DNA of 64,000 bases, from IMG/VR virus record IMGVR_UViG_3300028602_000005, positions 18,137-82,136 of that record, one strand, 5' to 3'. Origin of the DNA: a virus (Duplodnaviria > Heunggongvirae > Uroviricota > Caudoviricetes). The notes beneath the pieces were generated by a model, which was given only the letters and a program-made list of their open reading frames with translations, ran no database searches and was not told the origin of the DNA. Of the stretch, positions 27,436 to 51,588 are shown piece after piece. How positions within the stretch are numbered: the first letter of the stretch is position 1; each line of letters begins with the position of its first letter. The translations under genes and the position numbers were made by a program.

Positions 27436-27720
27436 TTACTTTAAGAGATATTTAATTTCGCCTATTAATTTAATATATTTATTATATAAATTATTAACAT
27501 CTTCATCAGAATTTATTATGCCAAATGGAGAAACCTGTGATAATATTAAATTAACCTCTTGTGCTTTATTTAATAACTCATGAATATTTGGAGGAACTTC
27601 AACTTGAGATATTTTTTCTACAAATTTCTTTTTAAATTCTAAATTGGATTTACCTTCATTTAAAAGACTTGCAATACCTTCCATTTTATTTCCTTTATTC
27701 TTTATCGTTTCATTTTTCAT
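27436..27720 (-). CDS. Hypothetical protein
   Basis: 94-aa ORF; GGAG-like RBS in the reverse complement. Confidence 0.45.
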   Translation of the reverse strand: MKNETIKNKGNKMEGIASLLNEGKSNLEFKKKFVEKISQVEVPPNIHELLNKAQEVNLILSQVSPFGIINSDEDVNNLYNKYIKLIGEIKYLLK

Positions 27721-27752
27721 AAAAACTCCTTAAGAAAATTTTTAAAAATAAA

Positions 27753-28541
27753 TTAAAGATTTAATATATCACCCTTTTCTAAAATTCCTCTAAAACCACT
27801 ATTAAAAACTTTTTTAGTAAAATTAAAATCATAATGTAATAGATGTGTAAGGTACATTTTTTCTTTAATTTTTGGAGGAATGGATTTACATAAAGAATCA
27901 AAACTAATATGTGCATCTGATTCAGAACCAACTTCACAATCTTGAATTATTATTGTAGCATCTCTATAAATTGGTAATAAATCTGCCAAATTTGATTTAT
28001 TCATATCTGATGTTATAAAAATATAATCTTGTTTATTATTATAATATAACAAAAGACCATATGATTTTGATTGTAATCCAGAATTCACATGAATATGTTT
28101 TAATTCTATCGGTAAAATATTATCATCATATTTACCAATACCTAATATATCAAAATAAAAATCTGGATATGTGAATCTATTACTTATACAATCCATTTGA
28201 TTAAAAATAATTGAAAATAAATTTTTGAAAATCTCCATTGATGGGATTATTAATTTTGGTTTTGGAAGACCTAAAAAATGTCTCATGTATCCAAAATAAG
28301 GAATACCTCCAATATGATCATTGTGACAATGAGAAATAAAAATTTTGTCAATATTACCAACATTCAAGTCAATTTTGTCATCAATATTTAAATCACGTAA
28401 GGCATATTTAAAATCTGGACCACAATCAAATAATAGTTTTTCTTTGTCATCATTTTCAAAAATATAAGAGGAACAATAGTTGTCCTCACTAAACAAATTA
28501 CCACTTCCTAAAACTAGTAATCTAGCCATTTTTATCACCAA
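27753..28541 (-). CDS. Metallo-beta-lactamase-fold nuclease, RNase Z (ElaC)-like
   Basis: LLVLGSGN...LLFDCGPDF...IDKIFISHCHNDHIGGIPYF follows the RNase Z pattern (LGTG...LIDCGEGTQ...ITHLHGDHxxGL); 262 aa, the short-form size. Confidence 0.55.
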   Translation of the reverse strand: MVIKMARLLVLGSGNLFSEDNYCSSYIFENDDKEKLLFDCGPDFKYALRDLNIDDKIDLNVGNIDKIFISHCHNDHIGGIPYFGYMRHFLGLPKPKLIIPSMEIFKNLFSIIFNQMDCISNRFTYPDFYFDILGIGKYDDNILPIELKHIHVNSGLQSKSYGLLLYYNNKQDYIFITSDMNKSNLADLLPIYRDATIIIQDCEVGSESDAHISFDSLCKSIPPKIKEKMYLTHLLHYDFNFTKKVFNSGFRGILEKGDILNL

Positions 28542-29185
28542 TATTTCTTAATGAAATTTATTAATTTTGAATATTTACTCTTTATTATCGGTAATGCTGA
28601 TTTATAAATTTCTTCATATACATTTTTATATAATATGAAGAATTCAATTATTTCTTTTTTAACTTCTTTAATTGTTACATTTTTAATATTATTATCATGT
28701 TTAGTAAAATCATTATCATAATTATTATCATCATTACTAATTTTATTATGATCTGTATCTTTTACTATAAGATATATATCATTATTTTCGAAATCTTTAA
28801 TAATATTTAAATTAAATGTTCTTATTATAGGTTTAATAGGTGTTTTCACTCTTGATATAAAATTTTTTTTTGAATAGCTATGAAATATTAAATCAGTGAA
28901 AACTCCTGGATCATTTATAAATATTTTTTCAGAATTATCACTTAGATTTATGGAAATATTTATTCTTATTAGATATTCATTTTTTTGAGATGTTTTTATA
29001 TAACCAATTATATATAATATATTTTCATCATCATGAATATCTAAATACTGTCCTTCCTTATTGTTTACCCCTAAAACATTTAAGTGATTTCTGTATTTTA
29101 AATATTTTTTATCAAATAAATCTTCATCTATAACAACAAGTTTAAAATCCTTTTTATTAAATCTATCAGTTATTATTCTTTCCAT
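28535..29185 (-). CDS. Hypothetical protein
   Basis: 216-aa ORF, translationally coupled to its neighbours. Confidence 0.45.
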   Translation of the reverse strand: MERIITDRFNKKDFKLVVIDEDLFDKKYLKYRNHLNVLGVNNKEGQYLDIHDDENILYIIGYIKTSQKNEYLIRINISINLSDNSEKIFINDPGVFTDLIFHSYSKKNFISRVKTPIKPIIRTFNLNIIKDFENNDIYLIVKDTDHNKISNDDNNYDNDFTKHDNNIKNVTIKEVKKEIIEFFILYKNVYEEIYKSALPIIKSKYSKLINFIKKYW

Positions 29186-29192
29186 TTTATTT

Positions 29193-30548
29193 TCACCAAT
29201 ACATTTTTGTTAATTTAGACCAATCTCCCTTTTTTCTTCCAATTTTAGCACAGGGTTTTCCATTTAACATAACACCATCTGCTGTAAAATCAACATTAAA
29301 ATTATTAACAATAGATGATCCAATTCCGACATCATCAAATGGAACTCCTAAATTTATAAAGTTTTTTATTCTCTCTTCTGTAAATCCACCTGAAATAATA
29401 ATTTTTAAATTTTTAAGTCCAAGAGAATCAAATATTTCTCTTGCTTTAAAAACCAATTCAGGAGAAACTCCTGTATTTCCAATAATTTTATTAACTGAAT
29501 TATCCCATAGATTTCCAGAAGTATCAAACCTTACACCATAAAGTTTGTTTTTACCTTCACCTATTAAAGAATCTATATAATTATCATAAAATTCAGGACA
29601 TTGAAATTGAAAATGTTCCAATTTAGTTTTATTTGAAATTATATAATTATAATTTTCTATACAACTTAATTCATATAAATAAATATTTTTTTTATTTTCT
29701 ACAATATCAGAAAGTTCATTATAAATAATTTCAAGTGTAGTTTCGATACAATCATTATCCCAATCTACTAAAACAATTCTATTTACACTTGGATCAATAT
29801 TATTATCAAATGCTTTATATGCCTCATATGTATTTCCATTATATGATCCTATGAGTAAATGAGGAATAGTTCCCATTCCTTCAATATTAAAAAGTGATCC
29901 ATTTGCATCTGTTGAAAAAGATTTTACACCACCTGTTATAGCTGAAGTTCCATCAATACATTGTGAACCATGATATCTAAATCTGGCAGGAAAGAAAAAT
30001 ATTTCATGTTTTCTATTTTTATCTGAATCCAGAATTTTTTTTATTCTATTTACAGATGTCGCTACTGCTGATCCTTGAGATAAACACCCCAAAATAGGAG
30101 TTTCTAAATGAGCAAAATACGCAGGATTTCCAATAAATCCTAAAATTATTTCCTTATCTTTAATATCAAAACCTTCTTTTGGAAGAAAATATACTTCAAC
30201 TTCTTCTGTTTTTTGAATCCAAAGTTCATCTAACTCTTCATAAAGATTTTTCATCTTCAAAAAATTTTCGAAATAATTTACCATATTTATTTCTCTTAAA
30301 TTAATCATAATATCTGAGAATATTGTTTTGGCTTTATTATAATCTGAATAATACCCAATACAATCGTATAAAAATGAAAACACATGAGTCATTCCAGAAA
30401 GAATACAATCTTTTCTTGGAAAGAATTGATATTCCATAATATCATTTTTATTATCTTTCAAAAGGATTTCCTGTGTTCTCATGAAATATTTATCTGAATA
30501 ATATCCAAGTCTGATTGCTGCTTTTTCTAGAAATGTTCCAGTAAACAT
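29193..30548 (-). CDS. Nicotinate/nicotinamide phosphoribosyltransferase family protein (PncB/NadV-like)
   Basis: 451 aa. N-terminal YSDKYFMRTQ matches the DSYK/TDxYxxTM start of NAPRT/NAMPT enzymes. GG-rich phosphoribosyl-binding segments (IISGGFTEE; GVPFDDVGIGS). Confidence 0.6.
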   Translation of the reverse strand: MFTGTFLEKAAIRLGYYSDKYFMRTQEILLKDNKNDIMEYQFFPRKDCILSGMTHVFSFLYDCIGYYSDYNKAKTIFSDIMINLREINMVNYFENFLKMKNLYEELDELWIQKTEEVEVYFLPKEGFDIKDKEIILGFIGNPAYFAHLETPILGCLSQGSAVATSVNRIKKILDSDKNRKHEIFFFPARFRYHGSQCIDGTSAITGGVKSFSTDANGSLFNIEGMGTIPHLLIGSYNGNTYEAYKAFDNNIDPSVNRIVLVDWDNDCIETTLEIIYNELSDIVENKKNIYLYELSCIENYNYIISNKTKLEHFQFQCPEFYDNYIDSLIGEGKNKLYGVRFDTSGNLWDNSVNKIIGNTGVSPELVFKAREIFDSLGLKNLKIIISGGFTEERIKNFINLGVPFDDVGIGSSIVNNFNVDFTADGVMLNGKPCAKIGRKKGDWSKLTKMYW

Positions 30549-30552
30549 TTTT

Positions 30553-30867
30553 TTACTCTCCTTTTTCTTCTTCCTTTTTAATTTTTATAGATTCAATTTG
30601 ATCCTCAAGGAAACTTATCTTTTCATCAAGATCTTGTGTTGCTTCTGAAAATTTTTTTATTTCTTCTGTTATTGTTTCTTCTTCTTTTAATATATTATAT
30701 TTTTCTTTTAATGATTTATAAGCATCGATTTTCTTTTCCAGTTTTTCAATATCTTCTGAAAATTCATTTTTATTTTTATTGTTACCTTCATTTATTTTTT
30801 TGTAAATTTTAATACCAAAATAACTTAGTAAAAATGCTACTACTAATACACAAAATATATAAAACAT
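30553..30867 (-). CDS. Membrane-anchored coiled-coil protein
   Basis: N-terminal TM helix FCVLVVAFLLSYFGI followed by E/K-rich helices. Confidence 0.45.
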   Translation of the reverse strand: MFYIFCVLVVAFLLSYFGIKIYKKINEGNNKNKNEFSEDIEKLEKKIDAYKSLKEKYNILKEEETITEEIKKFSEATQDLDEKISFLEDQIESIKIKKEEEKGE

Positions 30868-30879
30868 TTTATTTCTCCT

Positions 30880-31335
30880 TTATGTTAATACTTTTATTTC
30901 TTCAAAAGAAATGAATCCTCTAGGAAGTTTTCTTATTTCTGAACTAGGTACTTTATATTCTTTTTCCATTTTAATATATTCTTTAATTCTATATGAAAAT
31001 GATTTAGGTGCAATAAGACCAAATCCTGAATATAAAATTGGATATTTTACTCTTCGTTTTCCTTTTACAGTAATAATAATCCAATCACAATCACTAACTT
31101 CATGATTTGCAAAACTTATAGCATCATATATAGATTCAAAACAACATATTCCAGCCGAATCAGGAAAAGCTTTTATTATTGAATTTTTTTTGTATTTAGG
31201 AAAAAATATTTTATCTTCATGATTAACTTTAAGATCATTTCTTTTTGAACTTATCATTTTTTTAAAAATCATATAATTTGTTCCAAATCTTGTTCTTTTT
31301 TCAACTACTTTAAATGCTGTTATTTCATCTTCCAT
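30880..31335 (-). CDS. Hypothetical protein
   Basis: 151-aa ORF. Confidence 0.45.
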   Translation of the reverse strand: MEDEITAFKVVEKRTRFGTNYMIFKKMISSKRNDLKVNHEDKIFFPKYKKNSIIKAFPDSAGICCFESIYDAISFANHEVSDCDWIIITVKGKRRVKYPILYSGFGLIAPKSFSYRIKEYIKMEKEYKVPSSEIRKLPRGFISFEEIKVLT

Positions 31336-31406
31336 TTTTCACCTCAAAAATAAAAAAATGAGGTGGAGATAATTTTTCCCACCCCATTACTATCTATTGA
31401 ATTTTA

Positions 31407-32585
31407 TTACTTCTTTTCTTCTGAAACTGCTCCTTTGGGAATTGATAGATCAAGACCAATCATTTTTGCAGCAGCCATATTAAGAGTAGTCAGAAACTGT
31501 GCTGTTTGAGCATCAAGATTTGTTCCTTTTCCTCCTGCTCCTCCTCCATCGTAATAATATGTCGGAACATTACGCATCGAATATGCTTTTGCATTAACTT
31601 CTGCCATATATTTCATTGCATCAAGTTTTTTATCCAAAGCACCATCAGCAGCGAGAACAAGTCTTTTTCTTTCAGATTCACCTTCTCCAAGAAGAATCTG
31701 TTCTTTCTTTGTGAATTCAGCAGCTTCCTTTGCAAGTGACGCAACTGCTTTTTTCTGTTCTGCTTCAATCACTCCAACTTCCTTCAACTGTTGTGCTGCG
31801 ACAACAGCTCTGATTTTCTCTTGTTCTTTCTCATATCTTGCCAATGCGACCTTTGCTTTTCCTTCTGCTTCAATTGTAAGCTTATTTTGTTCAGCCTCTT
31901 GTGCCTTTGCTTTTGCAGTCGCAACAGCCATCAAAGCTTCTTGCTGTTTCGCAATCTGTTCTCTGACCTTGGGTGAATAATCAAAGACTTTAACTTCAAA
32001 GTTTTTAAGTGTTATTCCTGTTCCCTTCAGAGGATTAAATTTGTAAACAGGATTACCATTAGCATCGAGTTTTTTAACCTTAAATAATTTTTTGATTTTT
32101 TCTCCACTTATGAGATCTGTGATTTCTCTTTCTTCATCCTTTGTTTCATACAGACCATTTTCAATCTGTTCAATAGATGAATTAATAAAATCAGGTCTTT
32201 TTGAAGAATAACTTTCTTCAGCGGTCATTAAATTTGCTGTTTGTCGCAATACATTTCTGACAGTTGGAAGAATAAGTTTATGTTCAAGTTCTCTATAATT
32301 TCTATATCCAGATTTTATTATCAGATTTATAGCATCTGTTTCAGAAATAGGCAGATTAATACGGCAAGTTCCTGAAATATTACAAGTAGATCCATCAACG
32401 AATCTTACTTCAATGCTTCGATCAATATTTTTTCCTTCCAGTAAATCTTTTATAAAATAAAAAGTTTCTGATACTGGCCAAGTTTCAATGTCTCCAAACA
32501 TTTGTGCTTTCCACCCAGGAGTCATATGCAACCATTTTACCTGAGACAGCAGCCTGTTTAATTTGATATGTTCCGCTTTTAACAT
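31407..32585 (-). CDS. SPFH/band-7 (flotillin/YqiK-like) domain protein
   Basis: TPGWKAQMFGDIETWPV resembles the SPFH N-terminal PGlhfkiPf segment. Long A/E/K/Q coiled coil (KAKAQEAEQNKLTIEAEGKAKVALARYEKEQEK). The GC is higher than in the surrounding genes. Confidence 0.65.
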   Translation of the reverse strand: MLKAEHIKLNRLLSQVKWLHMTPGWKAQMFGDIETWPVSETFYFIKDLLEGKNIDRSIEVRFVDGSTCNISGTCRINLPISETDAINLIIKSGYRNYRELEHKLILPTVRNVLRQTANLMTAEESYSSKRPDFINSSIEQIENGLYETKDEEREITDLISGEKIKKLFKVKKLDANGNPVYKFNPLKGTGITLKNFEVKVFDYSPKVREQIAKQQEALMAVATAKAKAQEAEQNKLTIEAEGKAKVALARYEKEQEKIRAVVAAQQLKEVGVIEAEQKKAVASLAKEAAEFTKKEQILLGEGESERKRLVLAADGALDKKLDAMKYMAEVNAKAYSMRNVPTYYYDGGGAGGKGTNLDAQTAQFLTTLNMAAAKMIGLDLSIPKGAVSEEKK

Positions 32586-32694
32586 TTGTGATTATACTTC
32601 CTGAAAATGCAACGGCAATTATTATAATAACACACATTATAATATATTTACCATAACCACCCTTATTTTTCATTACATCACTAACTGTCTTCAT
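32485..32694 (-). CDS. Small TM protein overlapping the SPFH start in the +1 frame; may be the N-terminal TM part of the SPFH protein separated by a frameshift
   Basis: TM helix YIIMCVIIIIAVAFSGSIIT. The two frames share the ATCAAATTAAAC region; canonical SPFH proteins begin with such a TM helix. Confidence 0.3.
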   Translation of the reverse strand: MKTVSDVMKNKGGYGKYIIMCVIIIIAVAFSGSIITNVKSGTYQIKQAAVSGKMVAYDSWVESTNVWRH

Positions 32695-32726
32695 TCTGAA
32701 AAAATCTCCTTTATGATTTTATAATT

Positions 32727-34430
32727 TTATGATTTTTTAATACTAATACTGAATAATTTATTGTCTTTGAAAAATGTAAGTCCTTTATAATTTTTAGATA
32801 GATGAATATTATTAATATTTGGTGAATTTACTTCTCTTATTGTTTTATTTTTATAATCATTGAAAAATATTCTCATTTTATTATCATCAATCATTAGGAC
32901 GCAAACATTATTATTTAATACGGTAAAGTTTAAATCAATATTAGTGATATCAATATCTTCGTAAATTTCATAAAACATATGACTATCACTAAAAATTAAA
33001 GTAAAACGATTTAATTTATTATCTTTTCTTACAATTACAACTGCTACTTTATTATCATATTTTACATCAAGTACTTCACAACCATCCAACTCTTTTATAT
33101 GAATATCATAATATAAACTATTTTTTCCTTTATTTGAGATTGGAATCCCAAAAAACATTTTTCCTAAAATGTTTTGAATTAACATATTTTCAAATAATTT
33201 TGTAGAGTTGGGCATAACTGAAATTGTTAAAACATTTGAAGTAAAACATTTATATCCGCTTTTAAGTTTTAATATTTCCACCTCCATAAATTTATTTTGG
33301 TACTTTACATACAAACTATTTTTATAAACTTTGAAATCATCTGCTTTTATATCAGTTTTAGTTATTGATCCAGAATTTGAATCCATTATAAAAAGATCCT
33401 GTTTAGCATCTGTTGTTATAAAAATTGGATCTAAATTTGGTTCGATAAATAAGACTTCTGTTTTTATATTTCTTAATGGATATTTTTTATCATCCAAATA
33501 AATAAATTCTTTTGTTCTTATTATTTCTTTAGAAAACAAAGATCTATGATATATAATATCTGAATCAAATGTTTTTAATTCAGTTATATCAAAATCTGTT
33601 AATGAGAAAACATAACTTTTAACTTTAATTACATTTATAGAACTTGAAATAGCTGGTGGTGGTGTTCTTTTTCCATTTTCAAAAATATCAATATACCAAT
33701 TTACATATTCAGATGGAATTACATCAAATCCTCGAATATTTTTTGGTAAATTGCTGATATTTTTATTGAATATGGAAATATTAGATCTCATTCTATCAAA
33801 TATATTATCTACATTTGGGTGCTTTCCTGCTTTGAATGGATGAACGCCCAAAAATAACCAACATGATAAAATGGCAAAACTATACCAATCTGTTAAAACA
33901 TCAAAATAATTTTTTGTTCCATCAGTCATTGTTGGTGAATAGGCTGAAGCATTAAAAGATGTTGTTTTATAAGAATCAACATCTATAAATATAGGAATTT
34001 CAAAGTTATTATCTATCATAAAATTAAATTCATTCATATCGACAACTAAACAATCTTTTTCATGAATGAATTCTATAGTTTCAACAAATTTATCGATGAT
34101 TTTTACTATTTGTTTTTCATCAATATTATTTTGTTTTCTAAAACCATTAGAGAATAATGCACATATGGCAGTTTTACTTTCAACGAAATTCATTGAAAAA
34201 CCAACTCTATCGTTTTTATCATTAAAAATCATATCCAATGGTTTTATTATATTATCTTTATTTAAAACAGATAATTCATCAAATTTTTTAACAGGAATAA
34301 CTTTAGAAATATCTCTATAAATTTTGTAACATAAAAAATCTTTTTTATATATTAATGCTTCACTTCCTTCTCCCAAATAATCATTATCATTTAATTTGAT
34401 AACACTATTTTTGGTGTATATTGTGGGCAT
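32727..34430 (-). CDS. Eukaryotic-like Ser/Thr protein kinase with a C-terminal domain of unknown function
   Basis: Gly-loop LGEGSEALIYK, beta3 Lys in CYKIY, catalytic-loop-like IHEKDCLVVDMNEFNFMID, DFG-like IDVDSY, subdomain IX DWYSFAILSCWLFLGVHPF. 567 aa. Confidence 0.55.
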   Translation of the reverse strand: MPTIYTKNSVIKLNDNDYLGEGSEALIYKKDFLCYKIYRDISKVIPVKKFDELSVLNKDNIIKPLDMIFNDKNDRVGFSMNFVESKTAICALFSNGFRKQNNIDEKQIVKIIDKFVETIEFIHEKDCLVVDMNEFNFMIDNNFEIPIFIDVDSYKTTSFNASAYSPTMTDGTKNYFDVLTDWYSFAILSCWLFLGVHPFKAGKHPNVDNIFDRMRSNISIFNKNISNLPKNIRGFDVIPSEYVNWYIDIFENGKRTPPPAISSSINVIKVKSYVFSLTDFDITELKTFDSDIIYHRSLFSKEIIRTKEFIYLDDKKYPLRNIKTEVLFIEPNLDPIFITTDAKQDLFIMDSNSGSITKTDIKADDFKVYKNSLYVKYQNKFMEVEILKLKSGYKCFTSNVLTISVMPNSTKLFENMLIQNILGKMFFGIPISNKGKNSLYYDIHIKELDGCEVLDVKYDNKVAVVIVRKDNKLNRFTLIFSDSHMFYEIYEDIDITNIDLNFTVLNNNVCVLMIDDNKMRIFFNDYKNKTIREVNSPNINNIHLSKNYKGLTFFKDNKLFSISIKKS

Positions 34431-34442
34431 TTCTAAAATCTC

Positions 34443-35303
34443 CTATTTAAGAATAATGCCAGATATTGAAATATCATCCATATTTTTTATTCCTTTTTCA
34501 TTCAATTCTGATAAAAGGCTTTTCATTCTTCTTGTCAGAAATTTTCCTTTTTTTGTTTTGAAATTAAAAATTTCTTTAAGAATATCAAATTCACTTACTT
34601 TTTTATTTCCTTCTAAAAAGCTACCCAATCCATCTGACATAACAAAAATACTTTCTAACTCTTTTTTATCTTCTCCTTCTACCGTAATTGCAGATATTAC
34701 AGTTGATTCTTTTATATTAAATTCATCTACTTGATAATCTAAAACTTTTTCAAAATTTAAATCGCATAGAGTGAATTCATCTTTAATTTTATCTTGAATA
34801 TTAAATTGTGACACATATGTTTTCATATCTAAAATATTACATCCATATATTGGATAAAATGGTGTATTTTTCGGATAAGTATATTTATGAATAGCGAATG
34901 CATTATTAAATTTTTTAACTATATAACCATCTCCCATTATAATAACGATAATATTATCTTTTAATTTTATATTAATAATAGAGGTTGCTAATAAAGAATT
35001 TATATTTTCTACAGTTGAAAAAAATTTTAAAAAATGATCAAGTTTAAAAAGAAATTTTGAAACAATAAAACTAATAACTCTTTGAGTATCATTTGATATT
35101 AATTTTAAATTATCAAATTCTTCATCGATTATTTTATCGATAAGAACACACATTATTCTAGATCCAATGTCTGTTCTATCTCCAGATGAACATCCATCAG
35201 AAATCATAGAAATTGAAATATCATCGCTAAATTTTCTATGATATGCATAATCTTCACATATAGGATGTGATTCACATCCAAAAAAACAAGAATCTATTTC
35301 CAT
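34443..35303 (-). CDS. PP2C-family Ser/Thr phosphatase
   Basis: SDGCSSG resembles the DGHGG motif, and IFVMSDGLGSFL matches the PP2C SDGLWD signature; 286 aa. Confidence 0.55.
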   Translation of the reverse strand: MEIDSCFFGCESHPICEDYAYHRKFSDDISISMISDGCSSGDRTDIGSRIMCVLIDKIIDEEFDNLKLISNDTQRVISFIVSKFLFKLDHFLKFFSTVENINSLLATSIINIKLKDNIIVIIMGDGYIVKKFNNAFAIHKYTYPKNTPFYPIYGCNILDMKTYVSQFNIQDKIKDEFTLCDLNFEKVLDYQVDEFNIKESTVISAITVEGEDKKELESIFVMSDGLGSFLEGNKKVSEFDILKEIFNFKTKKGKFLTRRMKSLLSELNEKGIKNMDDISISGIILK

Positions 35304-35385
35304 TTTAATTCCTTTCTAAATTTAAAAAAAGGATTGGTCATAAAATTTAATATGACCAATCCTTTCAAAATATATTTTTTAAAAA

Positions 35386-36129
35386 TTAAAAAGTAGGAAC
35401 CGATCTGCTTGAAGTTCCAACATAATTCATTTGAGAAGATACAGATTGTGAAATGAATCCGGCTAGATGAGCAACACTTCCATCTCTTACATCTTTAATA
35501 TCTCTGAAAGCATCAATTCCAGCTTCTTTTTGAAAATTCTCAAGTTTATCTTTAAAATATTTATCCTGAAGATTTACTCCTATAAGAATAGTTGTAAGTC
35601 CTCCTTTTGAAACTTCTATTTTTGAAGAATTTTTCAATGCCTCTCCAACACTCTCAGCCGTTTTGAAAGTGTGAGAATCATTATTATCTCCATCTGTTAT
35701 ACATATAATAATGCCATTTGTATCAAAATCCTTTTTTGTAAGATCTTCTGAATATGAATTAAAAGATGCAATAGCAGATCCAAACGCATCAAAAAGAGGA
35801 GTTCTCCCATCACATCTAAAAACTGGAATATCCTTATCGAAATCAATAGCATGAAGTTCTTTATATCCAAAAACTTCTACTACGCCATTGAGTCCAAATG
35901 TTACAAATCTTAAAAGAACATTATAACTCTTCGGATGTTTTTGAAGATCTTTTATTGACAGAATAAGAGCATCCCTCATTGCTTTTGCAAAAGGTGCGAC
36001 ACTTCCTGTAACATCAAAAAGAATTGTGACTAAACAATATTCCGTTTCACCCAATTCATCTGGAACAACATATGAGAATTTAAAGCTCCCATTACAAATT
36101 GATCCAATACCCATAACATTTTCACTCAT
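35386..36129 (-). CDS. von Willebrand factor A (vWA, TerY-like) domain protein
   Basis: MIDAS-like LFDVTGSV (DxTGS) plus downstream T/D residues; 247 aa. Confidence 0.6.
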   Translation of the reverse strand: MSENVMGIGSICNGSFKFSYVVPDELGETEYCLVTILFDVTGSVAPFAKAMRDALILSIKDLQKHPKSYNVLLRFVTFGLNGVVEVFGYKELHAIDFDKDIPVFRCDGRTPLFDAFGSAIASFNSYSEDLTKKDFDTNGIIICITDGDNNDSHTFKTAESVGEALKNSSKIEVSKGGLTTILIGVNLQDKYFKDKLENFQKEAGIDAFRDIKDVRDGSVAHLAGFISQSVSSQMNYVGTSSRSVPTF

Positions 36130-36162
36130 AGTAAATATTAGCTCCTTTTTATTTTTTTATTT

Positions 36163-36960
36163 TTAAAAATTATCTGTTTTTATAATATTTGCGCCAGCAG
36201 ATTCAAATTCCTTAAGGAATTCTTCTTTAGATTTTTTACCACTTCCAACGGCAGATGTTGTGTCTTCTATGATATGAATTTTCTTTATGTTTTCTTTACT
36301 GAAATTTGAAATGATATCGATGAGTGTGAATGCGACACAGAAATCTGCTGCTTCTCCTGTTATCATAACTTCATCGAAGTTTTCCAAAAACATAAGAAAT
36401 TCTTTATTAAGCATTGTTCCTGGATCATCTGCTCTTGGGACATCAGCTTGAAGAACACTATAATGTTCCGAAAAAATATTGGACCCCTTTGTATAATACT
36501 GAGGTGGAATCATTTTGGAAATTTCCCATTCATGAATTGATTCAAGAAGTTTTGAATCAACACAATAACCAGGAGTTCCTATGATACAATGTTGAGGCCA
36601 GATCATAAGATTGTATCGGTTATTGGCTTCAAGTTGATTTACATAATCTTCAAGAATGGACTGATAAGGACTAAAAGATGCCTTAAAATTTCCATCTTTA
36701 ACATCTTGATTTGTTATCACCGTAAAAGGATCTGGATGATTTCCTTTTTTATCAATCCACATAATGCTGTGGGCAACATGTAATGGATGATGAGAATCCA
36801 AAGAAACAACTAACCTGTCAAATGCATGTTTATGTTTTTTGATAAAATTCGATAGAACTGACATGTCTCTATCTGCCCCATTAACAAAAAGTGATCCGCT
36901 TGGATTGGAAAAATCATATTGTGGATCAATAACAAAAAGAACTCTCTTAACCTTAGACAT
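36163..36960 (-). CDS. pncA: Isochorismatase-family hydrolase, nicotinamidase (PncA)-like
   Basis: VLFVIDPQYDF matches the VIDMQNDF start, and WPQHCIIGTPG matches the catalytic-Cys motif WPxHCvxGtxG; 265 aa. Confidence 0.7.
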   Translation of the reverse strand: MSKVKRVLFVIDPQYDFSNPSGSLFVNGADRDMSVLSNFIKKHKHAFDRLVVSLDSHHPLHVAHSIMWIDKKGNHPDPFTVITNQDVKDGNFKASFSPYQSILEDYVNQLEANNRYNLMIWPQHCIIGTPGYCVDSKLLESIHEWEISKMIPPQYYTKGSNIFSEHYSVLQADVPRADDPGTMLNKEFLMFLENFDEVMITGEAADFCVAFTLIDIISNFSKENIKKIHIIEDTTSAVGSGKKSKEEFLKEFESAGANIIKTDNF

Positions 36961-37027
36961 TTAAAACTCCCTTCGTAAATTAGATTTTTTAACTAAAAAT
37001 AAATATACCTTCAAGATTTAATATATA

Positions 37028-37040
37028 TAGATTTTAATTA
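37028..37040. promoter_or_regulatory. Motif 1 copy (TTAATATATATAG)
   Basis: Lies 68 nt from the pncA start. Followed on the + strand by the hairpin at 37064-37086. Confidence 0.4.
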
Positions 37041-37063
37041 TAAAAAAGAAAACGAAAAAAATT

Positions 37064-37086
37064 ACTTGGTGGCAATGCCACCAAGT
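37064..37086. terminator. Strong 10-bp hairpin (ACTTGGTGGC-aat-GCCACCAAGT)
   Basis: On the - strand it is followed by AATTTTTTTCGTTTTC. Candidate terminator for a - strand transcript of the ORF-free region 37090-37450. Confidence 0.5.
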
Positions 37087-37089
37087 AAA

Positions 37090-37450
37090 TAAAGCCATTA
37101 TATATTTTATATTTTTAAAGCAAAAGCCTCTGACTTTCAAAATCCTTGTAATACAGATCATTGCCATCATACCAATTCAAGAACAGTTTTCGCATGTTAC
37201 CAGTTATCCCTTCAGTAGATTTTTTAATGCTAATGATCCCCAAGCAATTCCACTGTTATTACAGAATTTTAAAAGTCTGCAATAACAAGTTTCATAGGTT
37301 CACCACCTTTCATATTTATTTTTTAATCCCTTAAATAGCCCTCAATGAAGTTTGGGGTAATCGGATGGGATTAATACCGATATACCTTCATTAAGGAACA
37401 TTTTTAAAATTGACACGATAACAAACATGCCACTTATATTATTTCAATAA
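37090..37450. ncRNA. ORF-free region of about 360 nt with locally higher GC and nested helices; candidate structured ncRNA
   Basis: No ORF on either strand. Nested pairings include AATGAAG...CTTCATT enclosing ATCGG...CCGAT. Flanked by motif-1-like TTATATATATAA at 37452-37463 and the hairpin at 37064-37086. Confidence 0.3.
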
Positions 37451-37451
37451 G

Positions 37452-37463
37452 TTATATATATAA
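37452..37463. promoter_or_regulatory. Motif-1 variant (TTATATATATAA)
   Basis: Just 3' of the dCMP-deaminase-like gene and adjacent to the ORF-free region. Confidence 0.3.
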
Positions 37464-37483
37464 TTTAAAATTCTATACTGAAA

Positions 37484-37864
37484 CTATAATTTTTCAAAAT
37501 CAAAATAAGGATATTCGCTGATACTATAATAAATTTTTTTAATTCCAACATGTTCTATATATTTCATACAGTTCTTACATGGTTTTGAAATTTTAAATCT
37601 ATTTCCTTTACTTATTCTTAAAACTAACATATAAGAACCTTTAAGAGATGTTTTTGCTTTTATAATTGCATCAACTTCAGCATGAATACTTCCTTTATAA
37701 TTTTGAAATTGTGGGTGTAATTTTTTAACAGACTTATGAGGATAATTATGACCTTTTGAAATTATTTTTTTACCTTTAAATATAACACATCCAACCTTCC
37801 AAAAATAATCAGTTTTTAAAGCTTCATTTACAGCTAAATTTATTATAGTATCAGATATGTTCAT
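37484..37864 (-). CDS. CMP/dCMP deaminase-family zinc enzyme
   Basis: HAEVDAI (H-A-E) and PCKNC (PCxxC) zinc-binding motifs; 126 aa. Confidence 0.7.
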   Translation of the reverse strand: MNISDTIINLAVNEALKTDYFWKVGCVIFKGKKIISKGHNYPHKSVKKLHPQFQNYKGSIHAEVDAIIKAKTSLKGSYMLVLRISKGNRFKISKPCKNCMKYIEHVGIKKIYYSISEYPYFDFEKL

Positions 37865-38222
37865 GAAATTCTACACAGTCTTCTTCAAGTTTAGAAATTT
37901 CTGTTTCTTCAATAAATTTAATAAAATCTTCTTTTATATAAAGTTCATTAGAATCGTATTCACATAAAAGGATATCTTTATCATTTTTAGCTCGTACTAA
38001 CATTCCTCCAATTATTCCAAAAAATTCTCTACTTTTAAACATTTCAGTTGCATAATTAAAATCATTTCTATGAAGTTCATCCTCAATTAAACTTAATGTA
38101 TTTTCTAAATTAGATTCTTCTTCTTTATTTAAAACTAAAAAGTTTAATAATTCTTTTGTATTATTTTTTTTATCTATTTTTACTTCAATAATATACTTCA
38201 TTTTAAGAGCCTCTATTTTCAA
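37851..38222 (-). CDS. Hypothetical protein
   Basis: 123-aa ORF overlapping the downstream gene start by 14 nt. Confidence 0.45.
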   Translation of the reverse strand: MKIEALKMKYIIEVKIDKKNNTKELLNFLVLNKEEESNLENTLSLIEDELHRNDFNYATEMFKSREFFGIIGGMLVRAKNDKDILLCEYDSNELYIKEDFIKFIEETEISKLEEDCVEFHEHI

Positions 38223-38280: not shown

Positions 38281-39003
38281 ATGAGCGAAGATAATAATCT
38301 GATACTTAGTAATGAAGAAGATAAAAACAAAGATAATTTTTATGATGAAGAAGGGAAGGTTATTTGTCAAATTTGTAAAGAAGCATTTACAGTCATAACT
38401 GCCACTCACCTTAAAAAAAGACACAATATGTCTGTTAATGAATATAAAGAAAAATATAATTCACCAGTAACAAGTAAATTTTTTGGTGAAATGAGAATGA
38501 AGAAAAGAGTTAAAAGAACAAATTCAAATATAAAAGAAAATGAATCTAATATTGATAATGATTTATCTAAAGAAATATTTGAATCAACTGGAAATATGTT
38601 TCAACAATTAAAAGATAAAATAAAAGGAATAGATTTTTCAGATAAAATAAATAACATAATTGAAAAAAAGAAAAGTTTCATTGGGAATATAAATAATATT
38701 CCTTATGATAAATTAGATTTATTAAACTTTTTAATTTTAGAATTTGATGAAATTTATAACAACTATTGGGTTGAAAAAATTATACATAGAGAATTAGTTT
38801 ATAGACTTATAACAGATATTGCTTGTCCTTCTTTAAAAATTGATTTTGAGTTCCCTAATGCTTTTTGGCATAATTACGATCAACCAAAAATAGTAAGAGA
38901 TAGAATTCTAAAAGAAGATGGATGGAGAATAGTTAATATAAATCAAACTAATCCTAAAATAATTCATTTAGAAGAAGAACTATCAAAACTAAAATTAATC
39001 TAA
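38281..39003 (+). CDS. Hypothetical protein
   Basis: 240-aa ORF; N-terminal CQIC...H...H may form a small zinc finger. Confidence 0.5.
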   Translation: MSEDNNLILSNEEDKNKDNFYDEEGKVICQICKEAFTVITATHLKKRHNMSVNEYKEKYNSPVTSKFFGEMRMKKRVKRTNSNIKENESNIDNDLSKEIFESTGNMFQQLKDKIKGIDFSDKINNIIEKKKSFIGNINNIPYDKLDLLNFLILEFDEIYNNYWVEKIIHRELVYRLITDIACPSLKIDFEFPNAFWHNYDQPKIVRDRILKEDGWRIVNINQTNPKIIHLEEELSKLKLI

Positions 39004-39860: not shown

Positions 39861-40922
39861 TCAAAAATCTTTGTCATCTTTATCCTCCTCTTTCATATAG
39901 TTTATTTTGCTTTGATTATCTGCCCATTTCAAAGGACTATCATCTCTTAAGTGGTTTAAAATTAAATCAAATACTCTATCCTGAATTTCATTACTCATCT
40001 TAAGCCTTTTGCATATCCAAAGGGCCATTTCTGCGCCTATAAGATCATGTTCAACATAAGTTGAACGATCTTTTTTATTCTCTCGTACAAAAGGTTTTCC
40101 TATATCATGAAGCAATCCTGCTAATCTTAAAATAGGATCTTTTTCAAGATGATAAATCATAGATACAGTGTGATCCCATAAATACATTCTATGGAATTTT
40201 GAATTTTGATCATAATCCTTTTGTATAGTTAATTCTGGAATAATGTATTGCATAAGATTTGTCATCATAAGAAAATCTAATGCATAGCCCACATTATCAC
40301 CCATAAGAATTTTAAATAATTCTGAAGAGATTCTTTCTTTAGATATATGTCTCAGCTTTCTTTTTGTTTTTGAAACAGTTCTCCAAATATCATATTCAAT
40401 ATCCATATTTAAAGTTGAAGAGAATCTTGCTGCTCTCAACATCCTTAAAGGATCTTCTGTAAATCTATGTTTTGGATTTCCAACACATCTTATTATTTTT
40501 TGTTTTAAATCTTCTCGACCGAAAAATGGATCAATTATTTTTGTTGAACCAACTCTTTTAGCCATTGAATTTATTGTGAAATCTCTTCTTGATAAATCAG
40601 CAGAAATATCATTAACAAATTCAACAGTTGGCTTTCTATTGTCCTTTTCATATTTTTCTGTTCTAAATGTGGTTATTTCAATCATATTTCCTTTGATTGT
40701 AAATCCCACTGTTCCAAATCTTTTTCCGACAACATATGCTTTTGAACCAGCAGATTTTATTTTTTCTTCAATTTCATCAGGAGAGAAAGAAGTTGTAAAA
40801 TCAAAATCTTTTGGTTCTTTTCCCATAATTTGATCTCTTAAGGTTCCTCCAACATGATATATGGGAGCACCTTTACCAAATATTTCTATAATTCTCGCAT
40901 CAACTTCTTCAATTGAAATCAT
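39861..40922 (-). CDS. cca: CCA-adding tRNA nucleotidyltransferase / poly(A) polymerase family with an HD domain
   Basis: N-terminal VGGTLRDQIMGKEPKDFDFTT (the GG and DxD polymerase-beta nucleotidyltransferase motif), RRDFTINS, and the HD-domain motif LLHDIGK near the C-terminus; 353 aa. Confidence 0.75.
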   Translation of the reverse strand: MISIEEVDARIIEIFGKGAPIYHVGGTLRDQIMGKEPKDFDFTTSFSPDEIEEKIKSAGSKAYVVGKRFGTVGFTIKGNMIEITTFRTEKYEKDNRKPTVEFVNDISADLSRRDFTINSMAKRVGSTKIIDPFFGREDLKQKIIRCVGNPKHRFTEDPLRMLRAARFSSTLNMDIEYDIWRTVSKTKRKLRHISKERISSELFKILMGDNVGYALDFLMMTNLMQYIIPELTIQKDYDQNSKFHRMYLWDHTVSMIYHLEKDPILRLAGLLHDIGKPFVRENKKDRSTYVEHDLIGAEMALWICKRLKMSNEIQDRVFDLILNHLRDDSPLKWADNQSKINYMKEEDKDDKDF

Positions 40923-40932: not shown

Positions 40933-41643
40933 TTAATTTTCTAAATACATCCAACAATCTCCATGTCTACAATCAGGAAGACAAGTCCATTTACAATTCT
41001 CATAAACTCCTGTATTGAATCTATGAAAATGACCAAAATACCATAATTTAGGTTTGTATTTTTCATAAACATATGAAAGAGCAATCCTTGAAGGATCATT
41101 TATTTTTTTATCTTTCATATACCCAATTACTTCCATATTTTTAATTTCAAATTCTTGAGGGGCAGTATGACTTATAATTATGTCAATATTTATATCAGGA
41201 AGATTTTCAATATCTTTTTGTGATATAGTTTCTTCTGGAAACCAATCTAATCCAGGAGTCCTATAATCTTTATCAACCGATAAAGCACCCCCCATAAATA
41301 AAACATTTCTCCCATCTTCAAGTGTTAAATAAGAACCTCTTTTCATATAAAACACATTTGGAAAAATCTCATTATTTTCCAATTTTAAAAGAGATTCATG
41401 ATCTTCATGATTTCCATCACATAAAAAAACATCTGTTTTTCCATTTTTTACTTTAATACTTGGAAACTTAGGCCAAAATCCAAAATCTCCACATTGAAAA
41501 ACTATTTTTGGTAATCTTCTATTAATAAGAACATTCAAAAAATGAAAATAGCCATGTGTATCGCCAATTATTATAATATCTTTATTTACATTATTTTTAT
41601 CCTGAAACATAAAATCACCTCTTAAAATATTATTTATTTTCAA
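40933..41643 (-). CDS. Calcineurin-like metallophosphoesterase
   Basis: IIIIGDTHGYFH (GDxHG), CDGNHEDHE (GNHE), and a later histidine pair (GHFHRF); 236 aa. Confidence 0.7.
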   Translation of the reverse strand: MKINNILRGDFMFQDKNNVNKDIIIIGDTHGYFHFLNVLINRRLPKIVFQCGDFGFWPKFPSIKVKNGKTDVFLCDGNHEDHESLLKLENNEIFPNVFYMKRGSYLTLEDGRNVLFMGGALSVDKDYRTPGLDWFPEETISQKDIENLPDINIDIIISHTAPQEFEIKNMEVIGYMKDKKINDPSRIALSYVYEKYKPKLWYFGHFHRFNTGVYENCKWTCLPDCRHGDCWMYLEN

Positions 41644-46221: not shown

Positions 46222-47166
46222 ATGAAAACTATATTAGTTACAGGTGGTTCTGGTTTTTTAGGATCACATTTATGTAAAAAATTATTAGATTTAAATCATT
46301 ATTTAATTTGTTTAGATAATTTTTATACAGGAAGAAAAAAGAATATAGAGGAATTAATTGAAAATCCAAATTTTGAATTAATTAAAAGAGATGTTATTTC
46401 TCCACTATATTTAGAAAAAGTAGATCAAATTTATAATTTAGCTTGTCCCGCATCACCAATTCATTATCAAAAAGATCCTATAAAAACATTTAAAACAAGT
46501 ATTTTAGGTGCGATGAATATGTTGAATTTAGCAATTGATAATAATTCAAAAATATTACAAACATCAACAAGTGAAGTTTATGGTGATCCAATTGTTCATC
46601 CACAAAAAGAAAATTATTGGGGAAATGTAAATCCTATTGGATTAAGATCAAATTATGATGAAAGTAAACGTGGAGCAGAAACGCTTTTTATGGATTATCA
46701 TAGAAAATATAATTTAAAAATAAAAATTGTAAGAATTTTTAATACCTATGGCCCAAATATGCATCCAGATGATGGAAGAGTAGTCAGTAATTTTATAGTT
46801 CAAGCCTTAAAAAATGATCCAATAACAGTTTATGGTGACGGAACTCAAACTCGATCTTTTTGTTATGTTGATGATATGATATATGGATTAACTTTAATGA
46901 TGAATTCTCATCCCAATATAATTGGTCCAATTAATCTTGGAAACCCAGAAGAATTTACAATATTAGAATTGGCAAATAAAGTAATTGAATTAACAAATTC
47001 AAAATCTAAAATTATATATAAACCACTTCCATCTGATGATCCAATTAGAAGAAAACCTGATATTTCTCTCGCTGAAAGTTCATTATTCTGGAAACCTTAT
47101 ACAAAATTGGAAGATGGTCTTATTAAAACAATTGAATATTTTGAAAAAGAAATTTCCCAAAACTAA
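46222..47166 (+). CDS. UDP-glucuronate decarboxylase (UDP-xylose synthase, UXS)-like short-chain dehydrogenase
   Basis: [15 protein letters not shown]...[18 protein letters not shown] is the characteristic UXS N-terminus (LDNFFTGRKRN), with a later YDESKR YxxxK motif. 314 aa. Confidence 0.75.
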
Positions 47167-47176
47167 GAACAAAAAA
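47163..47176 (+). promoter_or_regulatory. Motif 2 (CTAAGAACAAAAAA) overlapping the UXS stop codon, 38 nt before the ATG at 47201
   Basis: Conserved element. Confidence 0.4.
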
Positions 47177-47200
47177 TAAAAAAGAAGAAAGGTTAAGAGA

Positions 47201-50200: not shown

Positions 50201-50404
50201 TTAAAAAAGGGAGAGATAAATGAAAGTGAATTAAGAGTAGCAAAAGAGGGAACTCCATCTTTTCCATATCAAGTACATGAAGCAGAATATACAGAAACTG
50301 AATTAAGAGAAATTCTTGAAGGGATTGGTTTTTATGTTTTTCCTAGAAATATAATTAGTTCAGATATGATTAATGCCATTAGATTTGATTGTATAAAGAG
50401 ATAG
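47201..50404 (+). CDS. Four-domain glycan-biosynthesis protein: GT-B (GT4-like), two GT2 (GT-A) domains, and a class I SAM methyltransferase
   Basis: The GT4 E-x7-E motif lies in MEALASNIPVIATDSGG. GT2-1 (about aa 380-620) has VGIPTKDRPV and the DxD motif in LRLDDDV. GT2-2 (about aa 655-880) has VGIVLLTS and the DxD motif in FIDDDARI. The MTase (about aa 900-1067) has LNIGCFYMYLEGWTNID...ILISQVLEHI...GGHLIVEV. 1067 aa. Confidence 0.7.
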   Translation: MKITWSCYMHPFSSMGVIAINVCRELNKLGYDVSINALNAKDQNFYLESFPQDTQEFIQKGFREDSLGIFFAYPDIYPSVKCKVNVGYTGADTSGWYVTTPEITPAQICNKYMDYMLTPSRFSMKYMIDNGVKKEISVFPHGVDLNIFRSFIHHPNKQTNKKIFNFLYVGELSKRKGTQDLIETFIKTFGFDPNVKLILRANTHMLYYGGEEIRKLCENRSNIELNWVDAGQENVAEFYKKADMYVYPTKADWFGMTPMEALASNIPVIATDSGGYIEFLKDCIIPLKSKLVNIENNHPYMKGKWFQIDKEELSEKMKYVVENKREICGCESWKYSNILKNYTWEKVTKDYLVPFLEEVKSERFTEKYKSIEKKETKMNKRVTVGIPTKDRPVELSLLLNSLLDQTYKDFDVIIVNDCHTNLFNENTTVRALINLLMQAKHGVEVIEGDRKGPHYGGQRILENSKNDIILRLDDDVALRPTFIENLIKHFDDPKVAAVGPIYLNPHEIIKNQIIDPKFSYEDKVNMGKVYWDENGMLFLTGYNQCVMHPDKKPIETQHLNSGFMYRKSVAKEIGEYCLDLSIVGHREESDFSYRMFHAGYKLLIEPNSIAMHYHPMIGGIRETKGTYHGKDNWDHDERIFIQRMEKILPRSKEFVDKTKVGIVLLTSRKSRQFLQILEDINKYTNHPHEIAIINNDEEQLEKDVLDKILKYQTVRFAYTTEKHLSVSEARNIGYKSISKDIEYICFIDDDARILGRYNQNTDWLDFLYQKFNSEPDVGAVGPILTWFSLLQSYVLSVSCLFTSRKVLDVVGLFDNNFGNKAKGTWGYEDVDWSYRVIQSGFKLKGVEDNYFPFYHEDTTNKEKADWQEEGLIKAYDILKSKYDIEEINKYCRTVYPFTDLQMEYMTRVKTKLNIGCFYMYLEGWTNIDINSEIPCDKIMDMRDIKKNYLKDTVDIILISQVLEHINKEDGIKSLVDIHSVLKQGGHLIVEVPDCGDLEERLKKGEINESELRVAKEGTPSFPYQVHEAEYTETELREILEGIGFYVFPRNIISSDMINAIRFDCIKR

Positions 50405-50405
50405 A

Positions 50406-50735: not shown

Positions 50736-50749
50736 AAGGATAATTTAAA

Positions 50750-51582: not shown

Positions 51583-51588
51583 TATAAA

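Follow-up and report, generated by a model that had tools for sequence, protein, structure and literature searches.

Large phages link a predicted nicotinamidase to a TerY-P-like vWA-PP2C-kinase trio and to genes of Preiss-Handler NAD+ salvage

More than a hundred large phages carry a conserved four-gene cassette in which the gene for a predicted nicotinamidase is followed by genes encoding a von Willebrand factor A (vWA)-like protein, a PP2C-type protein phosphatase, and a Ser/Thr protein kinase. We describe this cassette from a 64,000-nt stretch of a Caudoviricetes genome (positions 18,137 to 82,136 of IMG/VR record IMGVR_UViG_3300028602_000005; hereafter the window). The original prediction for this DNA was that two minus-strand open reading frames (ORFs), encoding a PncA-like protein and a phosphoribosyltransferase (PRTase), supply the first two steps of the Preiss-Handler salvage pathway to nicotinamide adenine dinucleotide (NAD+). 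Both ORFs were confirmed on the minus strand, with that at 36163-36960 encoding 265 amino acids that include the sequence WPQHCIIGTPG and that at 29193-30548 encoding 451 amino acids. Their assignment to the two steps is supported by the catalytic triad and the Protein Data Bank (PDB) and Foldseek matches of the former, by the matches of the latter to nicotinate phosphoribosyltransferase (NAPRT) profiles, and by bacterial gene context. We consider it probable that the window holds the entry half of a phage-encoded Preiss-Handler pathway, with the nicotinamidase heading the cassette and the vWA-PP2C-kinase trio regulating or sensing something tied to NAD+ salvage. More interesting than the enzyme pair itself is the widespread linkage, in large phages, of a nicotinamidase and often of the whole Preiss-Handler pathway to a TerY-P-like phospho-switch. 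Depletion of NAD+ is a major bacterial anti-phage strategy, and none of the three pathways by which phages have been shown to rebuild NAD+ runs via nicotinate. Through its linkage to a nicotinamidase, the trio may also give a lead on how TerY-P-like phosphorylation switches work.

Results and discussion

A conserved nicotinamidase-vWA-PP2C-kinase cassette

IMG/VR viral contigs encoding a relative of the PncA-like protein were collected, which yielded 144 confirmed relatives and 80 loci that were kept, at least 22 of them on contigs longer than 200 kb. ORFs were clustered over 85 loci, consisting of these 80 and five already in hand, and de-duplication at 90% identity left 63 non-redundant PncA-centred loci. 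A kinase-centred set of 80 loci was assembled from 131 kinase relatives in IMG/VR. Only four ORF clusters were found in 71-76 of the 85 loci: N (the PncA-like protein), V (a 249-amino acid vWA-like protein), P (the PP2C phosphatase), and K (a 565-amino acid kinase); the next commonest neighbour cluster was found in 16/85. The whole V-P-K trio stands beside the nicotinamidase gene in 53 of the 63 non-redundant loci. Viewed from the kinase side, a PncA-like gene lies within 10 kb in 72/80 loci, and six of the eight exceptions are truncated upstream. The genes as a rule run N-V-P-K along a single strand, and this order was kept in 57/80 loci. LAGLIDADG and DUF723-type homing endonuclease genes, as well as many small ORFans, are inserted between cassette genes (L017:9098-9955, L026:6125-7072, and others), and the N-V-P-K order survives these insertions.

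The conserved unit is therefore the nicotinamidase-vWA-PP2C-kinase cassette rather than a nicotinamidase/NAPRT pair. The pair had been put forward as the unit, yet the constant partners of the nicotinamidase are the vWA-like protein, the phosphatase, and the kinase, and the type of PRTase encoded in the window (B-type, described below) is present in only 8/63 loci. The same prediction placed the pair in one minus-strand island with a TerY-P triad. The location holds, as the trio lies between the two genes, but the trio matches no TerY-P model in PADLOC and is not separate from the nicotinamidase.

The PncA-like protein is a predicted long-form nicotinamidase

The first gene of the cassette (36163..36960, minus strand) encodes the 265-amino acid long-form, PncA-like nicotinamidase, which was assigned from PDB matches, catalytic residues, and an AlphaFold2 (AF2) model searched with Foldseek. 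Its sequence matches in the PDB are nicotinamidases without exception. Alignment to yeast Pnc1 places residues D12, D55, H57, H124, K158, and C208 on the triad and metal positions of that enzyme, which we take to be its catalytic triad and zinc ligands. Among the relatives from viral contigs, the triad is kept almost without loss (D12 in 75/76, K158 in 76/76, and C208 in 76/76), as are the metal ligands D55, H57, and H124 (75-76 of 76), so that a loss of the Cys/Asp/Lys triad, which would have spoken against the prediction, was not seen; H64 is invariant in a 19-sequence alignment. An Asp-x-His ... His metal site, with the last His in WPxHC, sets nicotinamidases apart from other isochorismatase-like hydrolases. 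The AF2 model has a predicted local distance difference test score (pLDDT) of 90 and a predicted template modelling score (pTM) of 0.85, and the top 13 PDB matches found with Foldseek are nicotinamidases, the best being 2wta (E 5.9e-13, template modelling score 0.77 on the target). The 265-amino acid protein is thus best read, from sequence and model, as a metal-dependent cysteine nicotinamidase of a divergent long-form subfamily.

Compared with the canonical nicotinamidases (yeast Pnc1, 2h0r; A. baumannii, 2wta; M. tuberculosis PncA, 3pl1), the phage protein shares the fold, the Asp-Lys-Cys triad, the Asp-His-His metal site, and the WPxHC motif, but it is only 16-23% identical in structural alignments and scores under curated cut-offs. 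It also differs in a well-folded insert of about 50 residues (about residues 65-118) that is absent from canonical PncA and carries invariant residues of its own (P76, F79, T80, Y106, and L110). The long-form family comprises 1,305 clusters at 50% identity (E <= 1e-30). In the rare bacterial and mobile-element copies (L166-L169), neither the phage-type trio nor NAD genes adjoin the long-form PncA gene, and a search of fusion proteins in the family found no informative partner domain. One metagenomic protein, P0246 (1629 amino acids), combines ankyrin repeats and an ion-transport domain with several stretches that match the long-form PncA profile; it looks eukaryotic, which suggests that the long-form family extends past phages and bacteria.

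The large protein is a predicted archaeal-type NAPRT

The 451-amino acid protein (29193..30548, minus strand) is best read as an archaeal-type (subgroup B, here B-type) NAPRT with predicted specificity for nicotinate, on the basis of NCBIfam NAPRT models, PDB homologues, and bacterial gene context. All nine of its NCBIfam matches are NAPRT models, the archaeal-type PRK07188 and PRK08662 among them, and no nadC or NAMPT profile in NCBIfam matches it. The family name first proposed for it, PncB/NadV, did not hold: in Pfam, neither PF04095 (canonical PncB/NadV) nor NAPRTase_N matches the protein, in contrast to a phage PncB (L008:17180-18403) that scores 164 bits. Its sole Pfam match, at 24 bits and under the cut-off, is to QRPTase_N, an N-terminal domain. 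Its relatives of solved structure include 2i14 from P. furiosus and 1ytd, the NAPRT of T. acidophilum, and an invariant GT-x-P-H230 aligns with GTHAH of the E. faecalis NAPRT 2f7f. The protein is 40-44% identical to proteins of about 430 amino acids named NAPRT by NCBI/UniRef from Thermotogota-type genera such as Marinitoga and Thermosipho and from metagenome-assembled genomes (MAGs) of Bacillota.

The strongest functional evidence for this identity, itself a matter of gene neighbourhood, is the bacterial genomic context. In 80 bacterial loci of the B-type family, a canonical PncA of about 180 amino acids is the commonest neighbour (28 loci), and in 22/80 it is encoded directly upstream on the same strand, frequently overlapping the PRTase gene. 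These bacterial pncA-NAPRT operons (Thermotogota, Omnitrophota, KSB1, and others) share with the window the pairing of a nicotinamidase and a subgroup-B NAPRT, the latter 40-46% identical. They differ in that the bacterial genes adjoin or overlap each other and encode a short PncA, whereas the phage genes lie 5.6 kb apart, with the vWA-like, PP2C, and kinase genes and other ORFs between them, and the phage PncA is of the long form.

In phages, a pattern-based scan of viral sequences with the PRTase alignment returned two loci only, and HMM (hidden Markov model) searches of loci fetched by other queries gave more. At least two subgroups can be told apart among the phage B-type NAPRTs, and their nearest bacterial relatives differ. 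With canonical PncB included, different phages have thus drawn three kinds of NAPRT into the same array, a sign of selection for NAPRT activity.

The vWA-PP2C-kinase trio and its likeness to TerY-P

The vWA-like protein (247 amino acids; 35386..36129, minus strand) is described from residue conservation in 79 sequences. Its metal ion-dependent adhesion site (MIDAS) is intact, with D39, S43, T110, and D146 conserved in 100% of the sequences. It ends in a Ser-rich C-terminal tail (residues 225-247) in which S227, S229, and S231 are 95-99% conserved and positions 232, 234, 239, and 243 are mostly Ser or Thr, and this tail is a plausible candidate phospho-acceptor for the adjacent kinase. The protein has no match in Pfam or PADLOC, and its family profile gives a weak match to integrin alpha-2 I-domains (E ~4e-3). 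The PP2C-type phosphatase (286 amino acids; 34443..35303, minus strand) matches Pfam PP2C_2 with 47.2 bits against a cut-off of 24, and its metal-binding DG, DG, and DD motifs are kept without change across 13 relatives. The third gene (32727..34430, minus strand) encodes a Ser/Thr protein kinase (residues 1-255; Pfam Pkinase, 36.5 bits against a cut-off of 31.7) joined to a C-terminal beta-propeller-like domain (residues 280-567). No variation is seen at kinase residues D131, N136, and D150, and hardly any at K36. In the AF2 model (pLDDT 87.7), a disordered linker joins the kinase domain to a C-terminal domain that is all beta, and Foldseek matched the model to the kinase-WD40 of LRRK2 and to the propellers of Vps18 and WDR41. 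Judged by these conserved residues, the trio looks catalytically competent.

The same three domain types, a TerY-like vWA protein, a PP2C phosphatase, and a Ser/Thr kinase, make up the bacterial TerY-P triad, which is a proposed phosphorylation switch and a validated anti-phage system. The phage trio resembles it in its domain types, in the order V-P-K, and in its intact catalytic residues. The differences are that none of the three phage proteins matches the PADLOC TerY-P models (E <= 0.01), the only PADLOC matches in the window being weak generic kinase and metallo-beta-lactamase ones, and that the phage kinase bears a beta-propeller-like domain where known TerY-P kinases carry a C-terminal OB-fold (defence type) or zinc ribbon (CoCoNuT type) (PMC11090510). 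Moreover, the trio described here is phage-encoded and nearly always accompanied by a nicotinamidase, whereas bacterial TerY-P is host-encoded. Because of the missing PADLOC match and the beta-propeller fusion, we regard the trio as TerY-P-like in architecture and not as a member of the described system.

NAD+ genes are recruited to the cassette

Genes within 10 kb were counted for the 63 non-redundant PncA-centred loci and the 80 kinase-centred loci. An NAPRT of any type was found in 20/63 PncA-centred and 31/80 kinase-centred loci, canonical PncB in 12/63 and 25/80, and the B-type NAPRT in 8/63 and 6/80, with no locus in either set (0/63 and 0/80) holding both types. NadD was found in 10/63 and 19/80 loci and NadE in 12/63 and 22/80. 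The recurrent lesser neighbours are almost all NAD+ enzymes: PncB (TIGR01514, 324 bits against a cut-off of 269.55), NadD (NF000840, 171 bits against a cut-off of 150), NadE of both the glutamine-dependent and the ammonia-dependent kinds, a NadM-like Nudix protein, NADAR, PARP, and LigA. The PARP-like protein, which combines a WGR domain with the PARP regulatory and catalytic domains, is encoded a few kb upstream of the cassette in four of the 63 loci (L008:7072-8475 and three other non-redundant loci), and LigA lies in or near the island in 10/80.

These recurrent NAD genes are all on the cassette strand, often interleaved with the trio and with essentially no gaps. Representative arrays are N-V-PncB-NadE-P-NadD-K (L203, L215, and L222), PncB-N-V-P-K-NadE-NadD-LigA (L236), N-V-P-K-NadE-NAPRT(B) (L212), and NAPRT(B)-NadD-P-K-N-V-NadE, all on one strand (L193); in the last two of these phage loci the B-type NAPRT co-occurs with NadE or with NadD and NadE. 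Related large phages thus encode all four Preiss-Handler enzymes near the cassette, and we read the NAD genes and the cassette as one NAD island. The recruitment of NAD genes to the trio and their interleaving with it speak for both enzyme assignments and suggest that the trio is functionally tied to NAD+ salvage and not a separate module. Chance adjacency was considered and rejected, given an NAPRT in 20/63 loci against no tblastn match of the B-type PRTase in 50,697 GenBank phage records.

In the window itself, N-V-P-K is followed by four lineage-specific ORFs, one of them for an SPFH protein; after these come the B-type NAPRT gene, an ORFan, and the gene for an Apyc1-like metallo-beta-lactamase protein. 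No window ORF of at least 50 amino acids matched the HMMs built from phage NadD, NadE, PncB, Nudix, NADAR, PARP, and LigA, and Pfam scans of almost every window ORF of at least 100 amino acids and of flanks of about 10 kb on either side revealed no additional NAD genes.

Relation to known phage NAD+ pathways and earlier reports

Two phage NAD+ reconstitution pathways shown by experiment are NARP1 (Adps and Namat) and NARP2 (Nampt and Nmnat), and a third, NARP3, consists of the PnuC transporter and NadR (PMC13464706). The route predicted here had been proposed to differ from NARP1 and NARP2, and this distinction stands and extends to NARP3, as the window was found to lack all six proteins that define them. 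The Pfam scans, run on almost every window ORF of at least 100 amino acids, returned no PRPS-like or PF04095 protein (NARP1); these scans and the HMM search returned no NAMPT or cytidylyltransferase-like protein in the window (NARP2); and neither the PnuC nor the NadR family appeared in the window scans (NARP3). What the window route would share with the NARPs is the rebuilding of NAD+ from breakdown products or precursors by phage enzymes, and with NARP1 and NARP2 the nicotinamide input. It would differ in passing through nicotinate and deamidated intermediates in four steps, and in that the NARPs are shown by experiment, whereas a counter-defence role of the window route is a proposal.

The claim that the route is new holds for experimentally shown counter-defence pathways and is limited to these, because phage Preiss-Handler genes had already been reported: a 2024 metagenomic study of 'NAD-jumbo phages' described such genes, including a pncB-nadD-nadE cluster, and mentioned a phage pncA (PMC11662467). 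The chemistry (nicotinamide/nicotinate to nicotinate mononucleotide (NaMN) to nicotinate adenine dinucleotide (NaAD) to NAD+) and the occurrence of pncB-nadD-nadE-type clusters in large phages are common to that study and ours. The window differs in holding the first two steps only, with a subgroup-B NAPRT in place of canonical PncB and a long-form nicotinamidase, and in having the vWA-PP2C-kinase trio joined to them; no kinase, phosphatase, or vWA protein is mentioned in that report (PMC11662467). A 2022 survey of viral NAD+-ADPr systems listed NadV, NadM, and NadR as the only phage NAD+ synthesis enzymes. In the open-access literature we found no description of a phage cassette of nicotinamidase, PP2C, kinase, and vWA protein, no recent TerY-P work, and no 'NARP4'. 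The phage-encoded deamidated route is therefore not wholly new, and the linkage to the trio appears undescribed.

Proposed function and alternative explanations

In the mechanism that we propose, the 265-amino acid nicotinamidase would convert nicotinamide to nicotinate and ammonia, and the 451-amino acid subgroup-B NAPRT would convert nicotinate and phosphoribosyl pyrophosphate (PRPP) to NaMN. NadD and then NadE, supplied by the host or by phage copies elsewhere in the 280-kb genome, would complete NAD+. The vWA-PP2C-kinase trio would act as a phosphorylation switch, regulating or sensing something tied to this salvage. The phage would gain a sustained supply of NAD+ during infection, which would serve its own NAD+-consuming enzymes, such as LigA and PARP, and would put back into use the nicotinamide that NADase-type defences set free. 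PA5oct, a cultured jumbo phage, raises expression of the host pncA-pncB1-nadE operon when it infects (PMC7318152), which shows that large phages profit from the route. Fold, catalytic residues, gene linkage, and gene order are what we observe, and from these we infer the substrates of both enzymes; the dependence on host NadD and NadE, the regulatory role of the trio, and a counter-defence effect are likewise what we infer.

Several results weigh against this interpretation. At the level of single proteins, the PncA-like protein has no Pfam match at E <= 0.01, PF00857 included, and scores 47 bits on NCBIfam PRK11609, below the 174-bit cut-off. The best NCBIfam match of the PRTase, PRK07188 (E 4.9e-66, 223 bits), is also below its cut-off of 378 bits, as is that of L086, a bacterial protein of the family from a Thermotogota MAG (292 against 378 bits). 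Both enzymatic roles, well supported by sequence comparison, are predictions. Among neighbouring genes, the kinase and the NAPRT of the window have four unrelated ORFs between them, and most cassettes have no phage NAPRT nearby, given the 20/63 and 31/80 above. The neighbour counts for NAD genes are raw counts, and the link between the trio and NAD+ is drawn from gene order. Finally, no NadD, NadE, or NMNAT was found by HMMs in the window or by Pfam in the 81.6 kb inspected of the 280,160-bp contig, which comprise the window and flanks of about 10 kb, and the phage route as seen therefore stops at NaMN.

A counter-defence role is plausible, and a sharper form of the interpretation is that the island is a fourth NAD+ reconstitution pathway, in which NAD+ would be rebuilt from the nicotinamide released by TIR, SIR2, SEFIR, and DSR NADases and the trio would switch on upon depletion. 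We hold this to be possible, with the balance somewhat against it. It has precedent in the three experimentally shown phage pathways, nicotinamide is the product of those NADases, and the cassette has conflict-type neighbours (NADAR, PARP, and Nudix, and in the window lineage the Apyc1-like metallo-beta-lactamase protein). On the other hand, a four-step deamidated route needs more ATP as well as NadD and NadE, which were not found in the window, and the presence of LigA in the island or close to it accords just as well with simple cofactor supply. More speculative, and in our judgement rather unlikely as a whole, is a phosphorylation-gated system in which the trio senses infection stress or NAD+ collapse and switches on or assembles a four-enzyme Preiss-Handler pathway that defeats NADase immunity, possibly through phosphorylation of the Ser-rich vWA tail, with the window phage a reduced form that borrows host NadD and NadE. 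If true, this would make it the first phage NAD+ reconstitution pathway found to be regulated and would give a first function to a TerY-P-like trio. An unlikely reading is that the nicotinamidase chiefly clears nicotinamide, an inhibitor of ADP-ribosyltransferases, PARPs, and sirtuins, with the NAPRT an optional add-on. Yeast Pnc1 removes nicotinamide and thereby keeps Sir2 active, 43/63 loci have no nearby NAPRT, and PARP-like and NADAR genes recur near the cassette. The genes that have been added, however, are downstream Preiss-Handler enzymes in pathway-complete sets, which point to NAD+ flux; PARP is present in only 4/63 loci, and the Pfam scans of the window found no ADP-ribosyltransferase or sirtuin.

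If the PncA-like protein instead hydrolysed another amide, it could be an effector or partner of a phage TerY-P-like conflict system, for example in superinfection exclusion, with the NAPRT an unrelated neighbour. Bacterial TerY-P is an anti-phage system, the PncA-like gene is linked far more strongly to the trio than to any NAPRT, and the insert of about 50 residues is absent from canonical PncA, but the invariant nicotinamidase metal site and triad, the nicotinamidases that are the best structural matches, and the recruitment of three kinds of NAPRT, NadD, and NadE into the same array make this quite improbable, as do the lack of a match to the PADLOC TerY-P models and the occurrence of the same long-form PncA in bacteria without the trio. 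Least probable of all, and by a wide measure improbable in itself, is that the large protein is a quinolinate PRTase (QPRT), a NAMPT, or a Namat-like ADPR-PP transferase. The sub-threshold QRPTase_N hit is its only Pfam match, 2i14 was deposited in the PDB under a QPRT-type name, and sequence alone cannot give the substrate. Nevertheless, no nadC, NAMPT, or PF04095 profile matches, no PRPS-like Adps partner was found in the Pfam scans of the window, and in phage loci the protein never occurs with PncB but does co-occur with NadD and NadE. QPRT, NAMPT, and Namat identities were rejected on the profile results and because PncA is encoded directly upstream of the PRTase in bacteria, where the orthologues follow pncA and are not beside nadA or nadB; the identification of the protein as a QPRT or an unrelated TIM-barrel enzyme, which would have undone the prediction, thus finds no support. 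The entry half of Preiss-Handler salvage, joined to a trio tied to it, remains the interpretation that we favour.

The gene block and the surrounding genome

The source contig (ENA ERZ27250894 k141_2544144) is 280,160 bp long, a length that makes the source genome a jumbo phage. It is assigned to a divergent T4-like phage because genes for the major capsid protein (Gp23-type), the portal (Gp20-type), and a prohead protease occur in the window together with those for a family B DNA polymerase and a DnaB-like helicase. No close relative was found in the 50,697 GenBank phage records by megablast of the 12-kb block or by tblastn of the PRTase, and the GenBank phage matches of the PncA-like gene and the kinase are only unannotated uncultured huge-phage or gut records.

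Both enzyme genes lie inside a dense minus-strand block (27436-38222) with intergenic gaps of -14 to 141 nt and a single exception of 523 nt directly upstream of the PncA-like gene. A terminator-like hairpin in this gap (37062..37088, minus strand; a 12-bp stem with six G-C pairs followed by a T run, identified as a consensus match only) probably marks the start of a new transcription unit, and the Shine-Dalgarno sequence AAGGGAG precedes the ATG at 36960. Another terminator-like hairpin (35327..35366, minus strand; a 16-pair stem followed by a T run) lies within the cassette, whose genes are elsewhere tightly packed, in the 82 nt that part the vWA-like gene from the PP2C gene, and may be an attenuator or a processing site. 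A scan for sigma-70 promoters returned 93 sites against 86 expected and is uninformative because the DNA is 25% guanine plus cytosine (GC).

The four ORFs between the kinase and the NAPRT form a lineage-specific insert (30553..32694, minus strand) that is probably outside the core system. They encode a 104-amino acid coiled-coil/transmembrane protein, a 151-amino acid protein, an SPFH/Band-7 protein (31407-32585; Pfam Band_7, 37 bits), and a 69-amino acid protein. SPFH proteins recur in only three loci, and the other ORFs of the insert are unique to this contig. The metallo-beta-lactamase-fold protein (27753..28541, minus strand; Pfam Lactamase_B, 43 bits) is Apyc1-like, scoring 37.6 bits on Anti-Pycsar_Apyc1 PF23023, below the 50-bit cut-off. 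It is encoded two genes after the NAPRT in the window and directly after the B-type NAPRT in L171. By this resemblance it may be a cyclic-nucleotide-degrading counter-defence protein, and it is uncertain whether it belongs to the NAD system. Just upstream of the block, a divergent gene for a ROS/MUCR-like zinc-finger protein (38281-39003, plus strand), which adjoins the cassette in six loci of the same lineage, may encode a transcriptional regulator.

The pair of enzyme genes had been described as higher in GC than their neighbours. This is so for the PncA-like gene (0.331, rank 4/62) but not for the PRTase gene (0.262, rank 25/62), against a window mean of 0.250; the window DNA is 25.5% GC. 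The other GC-rich genes are capsid and tail-fibre genes, and higher GC is therefore no evidence of the recent acquisition that had been suggested. A collagen-repeat protein of 805 amino acids (43087-45504, plus strand), which matches phage tail-fibre families, is encoded by one of the most GC-rich genes of the window (0.344).

Rfam and tRNA scans found no RNA genes in the window, which also encodes a CCA-adding/poly(A) polymerase-type nucleotidyltransferase with an HD domain (39861-40922, minus strand) adjoining a calcineurin-like phosphoesterase (40933-41643, minus strand). The family B DNA polymerase (6913-10170, plus strand; 1085 amino acids) carries an N-terminal domain of the uracil-DNA glycosylase superfamily (residues 34-172). 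Homologues of ribosomal protein S21 (PF01165) and Cpn10/GroES (PF00166) are encoded just after a radical SAM gene (about 10880-11405, plus strand; L250 18943-19468). The last gene of the window is followed by a 3179-amino acid ORF with no Pfam match on record (L249 10528-20067, just past window position 64000). Many sugar-modification genes lie on the plus strand at 2850-5432 and 46222-55628, including those for several GT1, GT2, GT4, and GT9 glycosyltransferases, a 1067-amino acid fusion of GT4, GT2, and methyltransferase domains (47201-50404, plus strand), two NAD-dependent epimerase/dehydratases, and a Q_salvage (queuosine-salvage) protein (53482-54372).

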